From NCBI GenBank assembly GCA_951406725.2, contig OX597835.1, positions 28,148,001-28,212,000 on the forward strand: 64,000 bases of DNA, written 5' to 3'. Shown piece after piece: positions 11,471-59,760 of the stretch; position 1 is the stretch's first letter; each line of letters opens with the position of its first letter. Origin of the DNA: Octopus vulgaris. Taxonomy: Eukaryota. A program made the translations under genes and the position numbers. The notes under the pieces were generated by a model. That model ran no database searches. It was not told the origin of the DNA and saw only the letters and a list, made by a program, of their open reading frames with translations.

Positions 11471-11578
11471 AGTCACCTGAAGAGGTGCATTTTACACCTT
11501 GGATGTATGATAATGATTACACGACATCTCACTAATGTATTACTGGATCAAAAATGCATTGAAACTGTTGTAGTGATT
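11471..11578 (+). ncRNA. Type I hammerhead ribozyme-like motif with canonical core and long loop II
   Basis: agtcac-CTGAAGA-ggtgcatttt-[57 nt]-aaaatgcatt-GAAAC-tgtt-GTA-gtgatt. All three helices pair (with G-U); AATAAA follows at 11582. Confidence 0.7.
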
Positions 11579-12365
11579 TTAAATAAAGAATATCGTTCAG
11601 TCCAGTGTCTATCATTTATCTATTTATATAAACTCTACATGCTGTGGAATTCCTTATTCATATCCAGTTGCGGGGACATTTCCATGGTATGATGACATCA
11701 AGTAGCCATTATCTGTGAATGAGTTTTGCAAAGCATTCTACAAGGTTTTTACCTGTATCTTCCTTAACTATATGTATACATTATTTTGAAAATAGTGATG
11801 AATTCAGTAAAATAACTGTCATGGCTGGCAAAATAATCATTAGTATTTTGGAAAAAATGCTTAATGGCATATCATCCATCTTCATGTTCTGAGTTCAAAT
11901 TCTGCTGAGGTCGGCTTTTCTTTTCATCCTTTCGGCATTGCTAAAATATGTATCCATTGAACAGTGGGGTTGATATAATCAAGCAATTTTTCCTACAAAA
12001 TTTCAGGTTTTGTGCCTACAATAGAGAAAATTATTGTTTGGAACATAAATTAACGTGAAATGTTGATTGAAGGTTTTAAATTATATAGTTTTAATCCTTT
12101 TGTTACCAGGTTTTTATTGAAATACACTGCCTTTGTTTCAGTTAATATTTAAAATAATGAAGAATTTAGGAATATAACTTTGTCATTATGAATGTAATGT
12201 TTGGAATATAAATTAAGAGACATTTTGACTGACGGTTTTAATTTAGGTCACTTTAAGCATAAGTGTGCATCATACAACAAGGAAGCATTTCGGTAAAATA
12301 AATTTGCTGCTGTTAGAAAGAAACTGACTTGAGCTTTTGAGTGAAGGTTTAAATTTAGATTCTCT

Positions 12366-13092
12366 TAACCTTTTAGCATTTTTCAGGCCATCTCTGGCCA
12401 ATATATGCTAACTGTTTTATGTTCAGAACTGGCCAGGTCTGGGTCTCTCACATTTACGCTACATCATTGAAATCTTGAAGCTACAAGATTATGCGTAATT
12501 AATTCAAAACAATTTGAATTGGCATCCGTACTAGTGGGGTGCAAAGAGCACCATACGAGCGTGATCATTGACAGAGCGGCTAACCGGCTTCCGTGCCAGT
12601 GACACATAAAAGGCACCATTCGAGTGTGATCGTTACCAGCGTCGCCTTACTGGCACTTGTGCCTGTGCTAGTAGGGTGCCAAGAGCACCATCTGACATCA
12701 TCGTTGCCAGAGCAGCCAACTGGCTTTTGTGCCAGTGGCACACAAAAAGGCACCATTCGAGCATGATCATTACCAACGTCGCCTTACTGGCACCTGTACT
12801 GGTGGTATTTGTAAAAAGATTTGAGTGAGGTCGTTGCCAGTACCACCTGACTGGCCCCCGTGCCAGTGGCATGTAAAAAGCACTCACTACACTCTCGGGG
12901 TGGTTGGCGTTAGGAAGGGCATCCAGCTGTAGAAACTCTGCCAGATCAAGATTGGAGCCTGGTGCAGCCATCTGGTTCACCAGCCCTCAGTCAAAATCGT
13001 CCAACCCATGCTAGCATGGAAAGCAGACGTTAAACGATGATGATGATGATGAAGGATTACATTTTACAGAATAATCTGAATGCTAAAGGGTT
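12366..13092. mobile_element. TTAA/piggyBac-type MITE interrupted by an RTE family B copy (about 12520-13052)
   Basis: Ends ttaaccttttagcatt ... aatgctaaagggtt; the inner insert ends in (GAT)n. Confidence 0.7.
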
Positions 13093-13599
13093 GAGCATGA
13101 AGTATGTATCATAGAAGCAGGGGGTAGACTCAGATGGGGTCATCTCAAATGGGTTATCTACCATGCAGCCCCATGTTATAAATGAGTGTTGAAATTCCAG
13201 TGTTTTTTCTTTCTTTTCAAACATTCGTTTTTATGTTTAATTAGAATGATACTTGACCCAAAAGTTCCAGCATCATCTCCTTGGCCAATAAATATTCTTC
13301 GATTCCTTGCCGAATATCCCTTTTATCCAATCATCTGTATTTCATGACTGCTTCCTTTTCAACCTCTGTAACCTTTTTTTTTTTTTTTCATATTTGTTAC
13401 ACTTGTTTCAATCATTGAACTGTGACCATGCTGGGGCATCATTTTAAACGGTTTAATCTGACAAATTGACATCTAGCTGTAGAAATCATATCAAAGCAGA
13501 TACTGGAGCTCACCATGGTCGTCTAAACTTGTCGGTTTCTGTCCAAATGTCCAACTCATGGCAGAATAGCACACTGACATTAAATCCTTACAACACTTG

Positions 13600-13900
13600 A
13601 GGGTCCATTACATTACATATCCCATAGTCTGGTTGACTGTTGGGACACTCCTGGTGACCTTGCGACCAGGTCCCTCCACCCATCTCTGTCTTCTGCCTCT
13701 CACACTGCGTCTCTCATTTTTAGGCCTGTCCTCTCACAGATGGTGTTTCCCTCACCTCTTTCTGTCTGCCTCTGCATCTGCCACTTTCGACTGTTCCCCA
13801 AAGGATTGTTTTGGCCATCCCTGATGAGAGGGTGACATGCCCAAACCACCTAACCTTGTGTTTCTTTACTGGGGTAAGAAGTTCCTCATAGGGCCCTGTT
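13600..13900 (-). mobile_element. Degenerate RTE-clade LINE 3' fragment
   Basis: The minus strand gives frameshifted GHVT...AKTIL.GTVE.GR.RGRQK remnants. Confidence 0.55.
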
Positions 13901-14764
13901 ACCTTCCTTATTCTTCTTCATATGAAATAAATTGGTTATATTTCTACAATACACAGAATATTTTAATTGTTTTTTTTCTGCAATTCCAAATAATATTTAA
14001 TTTTAAAAATATAATAGGGCTTTTTAAAACACTGAATGGTTAGGAGGGTCCAATGTGTTAAATAGAAATCAAAAACCCATTGACAAAATATGGTTTAGTA
14101 TTCAGATTATTCATTCAAATTGTTCCAAATCAATCGTGCATTATCTTGTAGCTTCAACATTTTGATATGATTGTTTATTTTTGGAATGACAGTGTAGGGT
14201 TGGTGTGAGAAACCAGATCTAGCTGCTTTCAGCATAAAACAAGGAGAATATTTGGGCTGGATATGATTGGTTTAAAGGCTAAAGGGTTTGATGATGGTGA
14301 TGATGGTAGCAGTGCTGCTGCAGCTGCAAAAATTACAATTAAAATATTTTGTGTATTGTAAAAATATTACCACTATTTGACCTGGGAAAAGACAAGCCGT
14401 TCGTTAAAATAATTTAACTCAAATTATGCAAGGTATGTTGTTGTGTGAAGCCAGAAGGTTCAACTAATAAACAAAAGTTGGTTTTGTGTCATAAACTGTG
14501 ATTTGTTTATTTCCTATGAAGAAAGAAGAAAAATAACTCAGGTGAACACCCTCCAGGTGTGGTGATTCTGTAATGTTTGCCAGAGGTTGTACATATCTAC
14601 CTGCAAATGCATAAATAAATACCTACTTATACATATACATACATACCTACCTACCTACCTACATATATATATATAAAGTTAATCCAAACAAGAAAGCACA
14701 AAAAAACACAACGCAAGAACGTGGAACAAATATAGTATTATTGGATGCTAAGGAAAGAAGGAGG

Positions 14765-14799
14765 GTTTAACATTTCGAGCGGAGCTCTTCGTCAGAAAC
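14765..14799 (-). ncRNA. Minimal hammerhead-like motif within a short repeat (about 14678-14856)
   Basis: Reverse complement: gttt-CTGACGA-A-gagc-tcc-gctc-GAAA-tg-TT-aaac. Confidence 0.6.
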
Positions 14800-15069
14800 A
14801 TAGGAGAAGGGAAGACAGAGGGAAAAAAATCGCCAACGGTACACATACATACACATACATATATGTAAACAGGTGTATGTATATGTACATAATTTCTGCC
14901 AGGAGTTGCACACCTACAAACACACACACATACTTACATAAATATAAGTGTCCGTATATATATATATATATATATATATATAGAACCGTCCCCATGCAAA
15001 CACACACACATACTTACATAAATATAAGTGTCCGTATATATATATATATATATATTTTTTTTATATTTT

Positions 15070-58116: not shown

Positions 58117-58216
58117 GTATGTCTTCTTTTTCTTTTTTCTTTTTACTTTTTTAGTTGTTTCTTGTTTATATTATTGTTGCAATGTGTTTTGCTTCTATTT
58201 TTTTTTATTATAGTTT

Positions 58217-58586
58217 ACTCTTTACTTGTTTCAGTCATTTGACTGTGGCCATGCTGGAGCACTGCCTTTAGTCGAGCAAATTGACCCTGAGACTTACTCT
58301 TTGTAAGCCCAGTACTTATTCTATCGGTGTCTTTTGCCGAACCGCTAAGTGATGGGGACGTAAACACACCAGCATCGGTTGTCAAGCAATGCTAGAGGGA
58401 CAAACACAGACAGACATATACACACACATATATATATATATATACATATATACGACAGGCTTCTTTCAGTTTCCGTCTACCAAATTCACTCACAAGGCTT
58501 TGGTCGGCCTGAGGCTATAGCTGAAGACACTTGCCCAAGATGCCACACAGTGGGACTGAACCCACCACACAGCCACTCCTGGGCCT
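58217..58586 (-). mobile_element. SINE family A
   Basis: Reverse complement of the family A pattern. Confidence 0.85.
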
Positions 58587-58756
58587 ATTTTGTTTGTTTG
58601 TTTTAATCTTATCTTTCTGTTATTACTATTATCATTATTATTTGCCATCATCCTTTCGGGGTCAATAAATTAAGTACCAGTCAAGTACTGGGGGCAATGT
58701 TATTGACTAATCCCCTCCCCCAAAATTTCAGGCTTTGTGCCTTTAGTAGAAAGGAT

Positions 58757-59017
58757 TGTGTGGTAAGTAGCTTGCTTACCAACCACATGGTTCCGGGTTC
58801 AGTCCCACTGCATGGCACCTTGGGCAAGTGTCTTCTACTATAGCTTCGAGCCGACCAAAGCCTGTGAGTGGATTTGGTTGACGGAAACTGAAAGAAGCTC
58901 GTCATATATATGTATATGTATATATTTATGTGTGTCTTTGTCCCCCCAACATCGCTTGACAACCAATGCTGGTGTGTTTACATCCCCGTAACTTAGCGGT
59001 TCGGCAAAAGAGACCGA
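58757..59017 (+). mobile_element. SINE family A, truncated
   Basis: Head and body match; embedded between SINE H remnants. Confidence 0.8.
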
Positions 59018-59097
59018 AAGCTGCCCTTGTGGCAAAAAATTTGAAATAATTATTATTATCATTATTATTATTATTGTTATTATTATTCTTCTTGCAG

Positions 59098-59241
59098 TTA
59101 ACATTGACAACACAGTGGGTGCTGTTGGATACACAACAAGAATTTTACCATTTCTCTATCCTGTCACCTTAGTGAAAGTAGATGAATACACAGGAGAACC
59201 AGTGCGGGATACAAACGGAATCTGTGTAAAGGCAAAACCAG
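59098..59241 (+). CDS. SLC27A4: FATP exon (144 nt)
   Basis: cttgcag|tt ... ccag|gtaaga. INIDNTVGAVGYTTRILPFLYPVTLVKVDEYTGEPVRDTNGICVKAKP; phase 1/1. Confidence 0.93.
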
Positions 59242-59264
59242 GTAAGAAGATTATGTTTATCATA

Positions 59265-59760
59265 CAGTTCTATATTTAAGAGATGAGGAATTATGTACAT
59301 TAGACGGATATTTGTCCTCATCTTGTTTGTTGTTAACATTTTGGCTGATACACCCTCCAGCCTTCATCAGGTGCCTTGGGGAAATTTTTATTTTTCAATG
59401 TTATTATTATCATCATTATTATTATTATTATTATTATTCGGGTCACTTCTTAGAATCGAATTTGGAATCTAGAGGTTAGTAGCCCGTGCTCTTAACCACT
59501 ATACCACGGGCATATGGCGTAGTGGTTAAGAGCGTGGGCTACTAACCCCAAGATTCCAAGTTCGATTCCAAGCAGTGACCTGAATAATAATAATAATAAT
59601 AATAATAATAATAACAACATCGAAAAATACCTTAAAAATGAGAACCCAGGTTCGAAATTTTCCCAAGACACCTGATGAAAGCTGGAGGGTATATCAGCTG
59701 AAACGTTGTGTTAACAACAAAATAGATGAGGACAAATGTCCGTCAAATGTAAATAATGTA
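59265..59760. mobile_element. Head-to-head inverted duplication of a tRNA-headed, (AAT)n-containing, hammerhead-tailed element
   Basis: The arms meet at an 8-nt spacer (59507-59514). The right arm has A box TGGCGTAGTGG and B box GTTCGATTCC; the left arm is its reverse complement with small deletions. Confidence 0.8.
59667..59712 (+). ncRNA. Minimal hammerhead-like motif in a tRNA-headed palindromic element
   Basis: gacac-CTGATGA-A-agctgg-agggtata-tcagct-GAAA-cg-TT-gtgtt. A decayed inverted copy lies at about 59335-59375. Confidence 0.65.

Follow-up and report, generated by a model that had tools for sequence, protein, structure and literature searches.

Probable minimal type I hammerheads of the Penelope-like element kind at an octopus FATP4 locus, and a possible tRNA-headed family that carries one

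INTRODUCTION

What kind of mobile element leaves eight hammerhead-ribozyme-like motifs in a single octopus gene locus? The initial annotation, made on a 64,000-nucleotide stretch of DNA (the window, from whose first letter all positions are counted), saw in them a diverse, probably unannotated set of non-autonomous ribozyme retroelements. Minimal type I hammerheads of metazoan Penelope-like elements (PLEs) were described in 2014 and reportedly also treated by Lünse et al. in 2017. The metazoan PLE consensus has an extra base between positions 9 and 10.1, a G10.1-C11.1 pair, and a palindrome at 15.2-16.2; most such hammerheads are single motifs from truncated PLEs, others form opposite-strand pairs 100 to 700 bp apart, and Fig. 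S3 of that work includes molluscan examples from Lottia and Crassostrea (Cervera and de la Peña 2014, PMC4209133). In the part of Craig et al. 2021 (PMC8557442) that treats EN+ PLEs (Penelope/Poseidon, Neptune, Nematis, and Hydra), these elements carry a hammerhead near the 3' end, insert into microsatellite targets, and leave an inverted 5'-truncated copy beside the 5' end, with a 30- to 40-bp tail at one end; the same part describes nonautonomous Chlamys derivatives without a tRNA head. Animal non-LTR retrozymes, which are short, non-coding, and equipped with a type I hammerhead, have been argued to be nonautonomous PLE derivatives (PMC7229834; bioRxiv 10.64898/2026.07.22.740005). PMC13282606 assigns 6.83% of the Octopus vulgaris genome to PLEs, in 190 families, and 11.6% to tRNA-derived SINEs, with recent families mostly unclassified. 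The cephalopod precedent for hammerheads that our literature search found is a set of 235 Rfam matches in giant squid.

RESULTS

The window is the octopus FATP4 locus. Eight exons, covering residues 91 to 573 of the long-chain fatty acid transport protein 4 (P0001), lie at 40221..63377 on the plus strand, and one of them is 100% identical to an Octopus vulgaris protein. The four motifs past 40607 are intronic, and the four before 40221 sit 5' of the first FATP4 exon found. We scanned 150 of the 555 non-repetitive stop-to-stop open reading frames (ORFs) of at least 45 amino acids for the linkage to PLE reverse transcriptase (RT) or GIY-YIG ORFs that had been suggested as a check; neither domain was matched in these 150, a scan that short decayed pieces could escape, and thus no motif is tied to a PLE protein. 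The window also holds ORF fragments that look LINE-like.

All eight places contain helix I, a CUGANGA-like stretch, helix II, a GAAA-like stretch, a short helix III, UH, and the return strand of helix I, and the five helix I pairs quoted for them are present. The motifs had been expected to exceed their rate in shuffled sequence, and they did: a descriptor composed after the motifs were seen gave five matches in the window (three perfect-core and two one-mismatch) versus a mean of 0.325 (0.03 and 0.295, respectively) in 200 dinucleotide shuffles of 500-nt blocks, none of which reached three perfect or five total matches. The one-mismatch class is weak on its own, since 8 of the 200 shuffles gave two such matches. 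Of 230 Rfam matches (E up to 10), the 150 listed include no hammerhead family, none was returned on 59400-59780 either, and a covariance model built from three related copies (groups A and A', below) found no further copy.

Every conserved core base is kept in three of the eight motifs (C3 at 11477+, 14795-, and 59672+). Three more carry one change each (G8>A at 22351+, A6>U at 33513-, and a missing U16.1 at 47099+), and the remaining two are more damaged: the motif at 48442-, which both scans missed, has C3>G and G8>U, and the copy at 59335- has G12>A and has lost 5 nt spanning helix III and the cleavage site.

The families had been called unrelated, which proved partly wrong. The motifs at 14765 and 22347 belong to one family (74% identity with gaps), to which that at 33481 is related (71% over 93 nt), while a single insertion accounts for both 59335 and 59667, one in each arm; accordingly, there are five groups, A (including A'), B, C, D, and E. 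The extra A after A9 is present, by inspection, in groups A and A' and both B arms (five of the eight motifs), absent in D and E, and ambiguous in C. The G10.1-C11.1 pair occurs in A, A', D, and the majority sequence of B. We had considered the A10.1-U11.1 of the right B arm as a compensatory pair and dropped this reading because G-C is found there both in the left arm and in the majority letters of the sequencing runs. A palindromic helix III, as claimed, is found as AACGUU at 22351, 33513, and 59672, in CpG-decayed form at 14795, and as AAUAUU in group C; loop 3 of the motif at 11471 (group E) is non-palindromic. When two copies were folded together, the palindromes paired in two of four motifs (59672 and 33513), in folds short of a full double hammerhead.

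The argument that differing helix I sequences reveal conserved structure fails, because non-homologous families give no covariation. Among the three homologous A and A' copies there is one compensatory change (G-C/G-U/C-G), in helix I; it amounts to one of nine pairs changed on both sides in three sequences, and 177 of 500 shuffles scored as high, so the covariation is not significant. Aligned together with MAFFT, the groups came out of register, and no result given here draws on that alignment.

The two group A elements, at 14676..14846 (minus; full-core minimal hammerhead at 14765-14799) and 22285..22476 (plus; hammerhead at 22347-22381), share their 5' and 3' ends. The former ends at a (TA)n tract 93 nt past the predicted cut, and in the latter (TA)n lies 97 nt past it. 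The A' element (33383..33592, minus; hammerhead at 33481-33518) interrupts a young tRNA-SINE at that SINE's internal TA tract. In groups A and A', any target duplications are indistinguishable from the microsatellite. Groups C, D, and E are single copies in the window. The group C element (48318..48480, minus; degenerate hammerhead at 48399-48449) has a 7-bp helix I and (TA)n 87 nt past the predicted cut. The degenerate group D hammerhead (47091..47139, plus) keeps CUGAUGA and GAAA intact, pairs seven of eight helix I positions by hand count, and has (TA)n 130 nt downstream. The atypical group E motif (11471..11578, plus) combines a full core with a 6-bp helix I and a 10-bp helix II whose long insert brings the helix II region to 77 nt. 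The proposed link to (TA)n therefore stands for four of the seven motifs tested, at 87 to 107 nt past the predicted cut, with a fifth case at 130 nt, and breaks down for 59667 and 11471. Only 2.0% of random places have (TA)n within 80 to 110 nt, a range chosen afterwards.

Group B is a single insertion at 59264-59758 composed of two head-to-head arms, each with a tRNA-like A/B-box head, (AAT)n, a hammerhead, and a 3' end, enclosed by a 12-bp target duplication (59252..59263 and 59759..59770, both plus; 11 of 12 positions identical) that had no equal in 3000 control pairs. The right arm, on the plus strand, comprises the head at 59509..59583 (A box 59515-59525, B box 59559-59569), the (AAT)n tract at 59584..59618, a minimal hammerhead at 59667..59712 with a predicted cut after 59707, and a 3' end at 59713..59758; family 3' ends pile up at 59757-59761, and the element terminates in a short tandem repeat, not (TA)n. 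The left arm (59296..59506, minus) runs from the A box of its head through (AAT)n into a body with a 24-nt deletion and holds a dead hammerhead at 59335-59380. It alone bears a 32-nt tail (59264..59295, minus), which is partly echoed in loose ends of sequencing run X15; that X15 is an RNA run is our guess. The whole forms a long hairpin (z = -25.6).

A tRNA A/B-box promoter pattern matched seven places in the window (mean, 0.31 in 100 shuffles). The right B arm fits it at tRNA spacing, the left arm is 88% identical to the right over 65 nt, and the layout is that of the six other heads found with the pattern. For the B head, ARAGORN (0 genes) and Rfam made no tRNA call, and there is no cloverleaf. 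Head (at >85% identity) and body each occur twice in the window, always together, and head, (AAT)n, and body are joined in identical register in both arms; this link between head and hammerhead thus holds in two of two arms at one locus. Runs of four T are absent from the left arm and the majority letters, and the right arm has a single private one. Each of the six other elements contains two to seven but is richer in T, so that the contrast is weak as evidence for Pol III.

Beyond the locus, the hammerhead part of B is very abundant in three organisms, with 11,967 to 15,239 contigs and at least 399 to 577 3' loose ends per DNA run; these counts cover the hammerhead part, downstream of the 5' repeat-bearing part. 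The majority hammerhead is intact apart from CpG decay. Among 125 non-CpG positions, N7, the free core position, is the only one where a minor letter reaches 8%, a result that gives no contrast between core and non-core because the other non-CpG positions are quiet too. In the DNA runs, the 3' loose ends are AT-rich, agree at 0.41 to 0.50, and show no head-like consensus, and among the joints listed none is deeper than 240, versus millions in the body. Seven of the 24 DNA contig pieces listed carry at least 300 flanking letters, all on the 3' side, and these seven have at most 81 letters on the 5' side (strand judged by reading for four). Immediately 5' of the hammerhead, B copies therefore do not seem to give way to unique DNA. 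Neither of two protein searches with an ORF that covers both head and hammerhead gave a match, which is uninformative either way, and exact-pattern scans of metagenome and genome contigs gave 0 matches. Two viral matches of only 18 to 19 nt were taken as chance. For another repeat family (family X), which we had read as twister-like, Rfam gave no support, and it returned no hammerhead family on those stretches.

DISCUSSION

The motifs are very probably minimal type I hammerheads of the PLE kind, sited in the 3' ends of several retroelement families that are PLEs or depend on them. The PLE link that had been proposed is supported by the match to the consensus (extra base after A9, G10.1-C11.1, palindromic helix III) and by PLE-type insertion geometry; an inverted, slightly 5'-shortened copy at the 5' end, together with a one-sided tail of 32 nt, was seen in element B only. 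Evidence against this reading comes from the damaged cores (five of eight), the non-significant covariation, the empty scan of 150 ORFs for RT and GIY-YIG, the single-copy state of C, D, and E (C missed by both scans, E atypical), the N7 result with its missing core contrast, and the end of B at a short tandem repeat. A PLE RT and GIY-YIG nuclease encoded elsewhere would nick the target, often (TA)n, and copy the RNA from its 3' end, which in groups A, A', and C would lie about 90 to 110 nt past the ribozyme. The outcome would be short 3' fragments, in some cases two of them head to head, tailed on one side and accompanied by a target duplication. By analogy with published work in other species, the hammerhead of the source element would have weak activity as a monomer and would cleave in dimers formed via the palindromic helix III. 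Inserted copies would then decay neutrally, largely at CpG, so that most copies in the window would be dead. In Xenopus, only one of nine predicted dimers cleaved, and thus predicted hammerheads are often inactive (bioRxiv 10.64898/2026.07.22.740005).

The description as non-autonomous is likely right for the 59264-59758 family and possibly so for the 14765/22347 family, while the remaining groups may be 5'-truncated ends of autonomous PLEs. "Probably unannotated" is apt only for the ribozymes as such; their class has been known since 2014, and annotation of O. vulgaris already includes PLEs. The octopus motifs resemble that class (PMC4209133) in core, short helix I, many families per genome, and mostly solitary copies with some opposite-strand pairs, and differ in that no PLE ORF is linked to them, the helix II region of E is very long, and B has a tRNA-like head. 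Unlike EN+ PLEs, the elements described here are non-coding. They share with retrozymes a short, non-coding form and a type I hammerhead, and monomer copies are common among retrozymes too; retrozymes form head-to-tail tandems and circular RNA, whereas the octopus copies are solitary or head-to-head.

Group B comes closest to Sm-alpha and Sj-alpha, SINE-like elements of Schistosoma. Sm-alpha is of tRNA origin. In both, a type I hammerhead reportedly lies downstream of a Pol III promoter (PMC6765202, PMC8490949), and Sm-alpha propagates via tandem repeats and has a canonical hammerhead; B differs in its minimal PLE-type hammerhead, internal (AAT)n, and PLE-type inverted tailed insertion. Its head shares the A/B-box layout of octopus tRNA-SINEs.

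Group B is best explained, with chances about even, by non-coding elements that carry a tRNA-like Pol III head and depend on this PLE machinery. The fuller reading, which we hold tentatively and put slightly below even, is that B is a Pol III-transcribed, tRNA-headed SINE with a PLE-type 3' half and minimal hammerhead, copied by PLE rather than LINE enzymes into thousands to perhaps 10^5 copies in octopuses, with a source that changes mainly at the free core position. It is rather doubtful that every group, even B, consists only of truncated 3' ends from autonomous PLEs and that the tRNA-like heads of B arose by accident at this locus, for instance when a SINE-head palindrome later entered the centre of an inverted pair. 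Truncation at the 5' end is the usual fate of PLE copies, contig mapping stops short of the head, and the protein searches across head and hammerhead were empty; on the other side stand the shared register of the two arms, the constant pairing of head with body in the window, the single duplication around the whole unit, and the exclusively 3' long flanks of the seven contig pieces. SINE tails normally derive from LINEs, and B could be an ordinary LINE-mobilised tRNA-SINE that captured a hammerhead, its tandem 3' repeat being a LINE-type tail. The tRNA-like head, the lack of T4 in left arm and majority, the 12-bp duplication, the repeated 3' unit, and the presumed LINE-like fragments would all suit such an origin, but two arms set head to head within a single duplication, one of them with a 32-nt tail, are PLE geometry and the hammerhead is of the PLE minimal type, which makes it unlikely.

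Non-LTR retrozymes, in which tandem 170- to 400-nt units self-cleave, circularise, and are reverse-transcribed, are a decidedly unlikely source. Units of about 170 to 250 nt, type I hammerheads, and the status of retrozymes as PLE derivatives with many monomer copies agree with them, yet the window has no head-to-tail repeat, the motifs are minimal rather than canonical, and the heterogeneous 3' flanks of B and its shallow listed joints speak against the tandem-repeat sense of the term; rare source tandems may still exist elsewhere. That B is a MITE or foldback DNA transposon with an incidental hammerhead is highly improbable: the long hairpin and target duplication would fit, but its ends are asymmetric, with the tail on one arm, its 3' ends are ragged, and its centre consists of paired Pol III-type heads. 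Chance matching, finally, is close to negligible and is already refuted by the shuffles as the origin of the whole set, and groups A and B recur with their fold preserved; given the shuffles that reach two one-mismatch matches, and the single-copy state of C, D, and E, one of these three is possibly a chance match.

It is unsurprising, and only modestly interesting, that a class known since 2014 extends to octopus. Our literature search found no tRNA-headed PLE-mobilised SINE and no cephalopod hammerhead study beyond giant squid, and the portion of the PMC4209133 supplement file searched holds no cephalopod entries; Repbase, Dfam, SINEBase, the Zenodo library of PMC13282606, the bioRxiv supplements, and PMC4209133 supplement file 1 could already name these families, and B may lie unnamed within published octopus SINE libraries. 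If B is a PLE-mobilised SINE, it would represent a SINE-PLE partnership that the search did not find in print and, should the upper copy estimate hold, it would be among the most abundant genomic hammerhead families; axolotl retrozymes reach up to 120,000 copies. A unit of this kind, 250 nt long and equipped with its own promoter, would also lend itself to probing the role of PLE hammerheads and the way in which inverted, tailed PLE insertions arise. The window contains a second, hammerhead-less family at 48493-48785 with the same geometry as B (head-to-head arms, a one-sided tail, and a 12-bp duplication), and many octopus "MITEs" and "unclassified SINEs" may therefore be PLE passengers.

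Hammerhead-like motifs in the window and their cores

All eight of the hammerhead-like motifs described in the initial annotation are present where it placed them. We sorted them into groups A (14765 and 22347), A' (33481, a relative of group A), B (59335 and 59667), C (48399), D (47099) and E (11471). The window was scanned with a descriptor, composed after the motifs had been seen, that comprised the core, an optional extra base, a helix I of at least 4 pairs, a helix II of at least 3 pairs and a minimal helix III. Three motifs have a perfect core by this descriptor (C3 at 11477+, 14795- and 59672+) and two have one mismatch (22351+ and 33513-). 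Block-wise dinucleotide shuffles (n = 200), a check proposed along with the motifs, gave means of 0.03 perfect and 0.295 one-mismatch matches; none yielded three perfect matches or five in total, and two one-mismatch matches were attained in 8 of the 200. The motif at 47099+ was detected only when U16.1 was allowed to vary, that at 48442- has two core changes and failed both scans, and the 59335- copy carries G12>A and a 5-nt deletion spanning the cut site. The motifs are thus real, but their intactness had been overstated, since five of the eight are damaged, and so had their independence as at least five unrelated families: A' is related to A, and 59335 and 59667 both belong to group B. Across the three A and A' copies, 25 of 27 cells are paired and one helix I pair is seen as G-C, G-U and C-G, a result equalled by 177 of 500 shuffles. 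Rfam gave no hammerhead among the best 150 of 230 matches for the window, nor within 59400-59780.

Fit to minimal hammerheads of Penelope-like elements

Cervera and de la Peña defined the minimal hammerhead of Penelope-like elements (PLEs) in 2014 (PMC4209133). Its marks are an extra base separating position 9 from 10.1, G10.1 paired with C11.1, a palindromic segment at 15.2-16.2 and a short helix I. The paper describes many families per genome, with copies mostly solitary and tied to truncated PLEs, some pairs on opposite strands 100 to 700 bp apart, and about 9,000 copies in Xenopus; it reports no cleavage of monomers and weak cleavage of dimers. Groups A, A' and B fit this consensus closely and groups C and D fit it with damage, whereas group E is atypical, with a 77-nt helix II region and without the palindrome. 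The hammerhead class is already known, and the motifs in the window are further members of it. PMC13282606 assigns 6.83% of the O. vulgaris genome to PLEs, which it divides into 190 families; its supplement does not mention hammerheads, and a literature search requiring that word did not retrieve the paper. Of the 555 non-repetitive stop-to-stop open reading frames (ORFs) of at least 45 aa in the window, 150 were scanned for the suggested linkage to PLE proteins and gave neither an RT nor a GIY-YIG domain.

Craig et al. 2021 (PMC8557442) describe PLE insertions that carry a 5'-truncated copy in inverted orientation at the 5' end, have a 30- to 40-bp tail at one end and target microsatellites. 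The association with (TA)n tracts claimed in the initial annotation held in part: four of seven tested motifs have a tract 87 to 107 nt past the predicted cut (distances accurate to about 2 nt) and a fifth has one at 130 nt, while two have no tract within 400 nt. Of random places, 2.0% have a (TA)n tract at 80-110 nt, an interval picked post hoc, and 13.8% have one within 130 nt. The A' insertion splits a tRNA-SINE (33150-33760) at the SINE's internal TA tract; the 5' half of this SINE shares 98.8% identity with the copy at 22513, indicating that A' moved recently, despite its core A6>U change. Both ends are common to the two group A copies, a sequence feature hinting that group A may be a defined short family.

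An exon in the window matches long-chain fatty acid transport protein 4 (FATP4) with 100% identity in O. vulgaris and 97% in O. bimaculoides, and eight FATP4 exons were mapped between 40221 and 63377. The four motifs 3' of 40607 are all intronic. The other four, at positions below 40221, precede the first FATP4 exon detected; because FATP4 residues 1-90 have no match within the window, these motifs are probably intronic too.

Element B is a single insertion with two arms

The pair of group B motifs lies in element B (59264-59758), which is flanked by 12-nt direct repeats that are identical at 11 of 12 positions. None of 3,000 AT-matched control pairs was as good, and the right repeat starts where the 3' ends of the family pile up in public contigs (59757-59761); together, these observations indicate that element B is one insertion. 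It consists of two head-to-head arms of the same order: first a tRNA-like head containing an A box and a B box, then (AAT)n and a body, and last the hammerhead, followed by some 50 nt of 3'-terminal sequence. The left arm begins at its own A box, 6 to 7 nt shorter than the right arm, and has an extra 32-nt tail. Compared by hand, this tail agrees at 22 of 30 letters with a consensus built from 21 loose ends that follow 59760 in contig run X15, seven of the eight misses being at C positions; it is only faint in the DNA runs and is therefore a minority feature of the family. The A/B-box pattern applied to the head has 7 matches across the window, where 100 shuffles averaged 0.31, and neither ARAGORN nor Rfam called a tRNA at the head. 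A second B-box-like word lies in the body just 5' of the hammerhead (59648-59660), and element B begins about 20 nt past a FATP4 exon. The predicted pre-mRNA hairpin (59245-59790) comprises about 230 bp at -286.5 kcal/mol (z = -25.6); such arm pairing in the intron would hide the sense-strand hammerhead, and the hairpin is a possible A-to-I editing substrate.

The link between head and hammerhead is based on the two arms of this one insertion. Among 24 listed DNA pieces, 7 have at least 300 flanking letters, all on the 3' side, with at most 81 letters 5' (four minus-strand rows depend on how coordinates are read). These one-sided flanks support the link indirectly, and the (AAT)n tract alone could produce them. 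Protein and pattern searches with group B found nothing. The geometry of element B (palindrome, one-sided tail and 12-bp duplication) recurs in family X, which has no hammerhead: its copy at 48493-48785 forms an almost perfect palindrome of 240 bp, has 52 nt of tail on one side and is flanked by a target duplication of 12 bp (48481-48492 and 48786-48797, 11 of 12 identical). Element B, together with the like geometry of family X, allows the reading that group B is a PLE-mobilised, tRNA-headed SINE, which falls a little short of an even chance. This family X copy lies immediately 5' of the group C element, and a second copy (61430-61622) consists of one arm and the tail, ending at (TA)n. Searches of the family X stretches returned no hammerhead and no Rfam match, and a check of whether family X is a twister was likewise negative.

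Abundance and variation of group B

Group B was compared among contigs only, in 4 of 24 listed runs at 80% likeness, over the portion 3' of its repeat-bearing 5' part. Contigs with group B numbered 11,967, 15,239 and 13,166 in the DNA runs of organisms A, B and E, respectively. On the 3' side, these runs gave at least 577, 510 and 399 long loose ends that agree poorly with one another, which we read as putative separate insertion sites. Summed core depth was about 2.1, 5.2 and 4.0 million in the three runs, and the longest single pieces had depths of 13-21, 35-72 and 30-52, depth being no copy number; our bounds run from about 3,000-5,000 copies, with each 31-letter word taken as a separate count, to about 10^5 by the plain ratio.

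The right arm departs from the majority at 6 positions, at all of which the left arm has the majority letter, and the majority letters restore the G10.1-C11.1 pair. Between 59628 and 59760, the sole non-CpG position (of 125) with a minor letter at 8% or more is 59676, which is N7, the single free base of CUGANGA. This confinement suggests that source copies kept the remaining non-CpG positions fixed, core and non-core taken together. At 59676 (one DNA run per organism), T>A makes up 13-19% of the depth in all three organisms. T>C reaches 13% in organism E and 0.4-0.5% in A and B, a pattern suggestive of a subfamily burst specific to one lineage. Decay at CpG affects G12 in 8-10%, and for every CpG base of the palindrome the figure is 14-18%; many group B copies are therefore dead.

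Proposed mobilization and known systems

Judging from the geometry, mobilization would most likely rely on an RT and a nuclease supplied in trans by a PLE, with reverse transcription primed at a nicked, AT-rich target and starting from the RNA 3' end. What results would be either short 3' fragments or complete short units; some of these would also carry a second copy in inverted orientation, a tail at one end and a duplication. Penelope target duplications are roughly in the 12-nt length range. In source RNAs, the hammerhead would act as a dimer via its palindrome. Since genomic copies extend 3' past the cut site, the RNA from which they were made was uncut, multimeric or circular. In the literature, release and circularization of element RNA in vivo stand as proposals (PMC4209133, PMC6765202). 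PLEs depend on a promoter in an upstream copy (PMC6765202), a requirement from which a putative Pol III head would release group B.

Non-LTR retrozymes, which the initial annotation had also invoked, are PLE-derived tandems as outlined in PMC7229834 and bioRxiv 10.64898/2026.07.22.740005; since no tandem was seen in the window, we do not class the motifs as retrozymes. The nearest precedent for group B is Schistosoma Sm-alpha, which has its hammerhead downstream of a Pol III promoter and spreads through tandems (PMC6765202, PMC8490949); the Pol III-type head 5' of the hammerhead would be shared, whereas tandem spread is a property of Sm-alpha. Short nonautonomous Penelope elements are mentioned in butterflies (PMC6685494), and non-autonomous LTR elements bearing a tRNA are known (PMC10886601). 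We found no tRNA-headed, PLE-mobilised SINE in the literature outside repeat databases and most subscription journals.

Other features of the window

An ORF fragment at 22886-23173 (-) has helix-turn-helix matches (best E = 2.3e-6) and is probably a piece of a decayed DNA transposase. Four further fragments (4036-4347, 22060-22410, 34608-34949 and 62563-62922), which we take to resemble CR1-type and RTE-type LINEs, had no Pfam match among the 150 of 555 ORFs scanned. A TA/TG-rich microsatellite array of 2.4 kb occupies 19530-22019.
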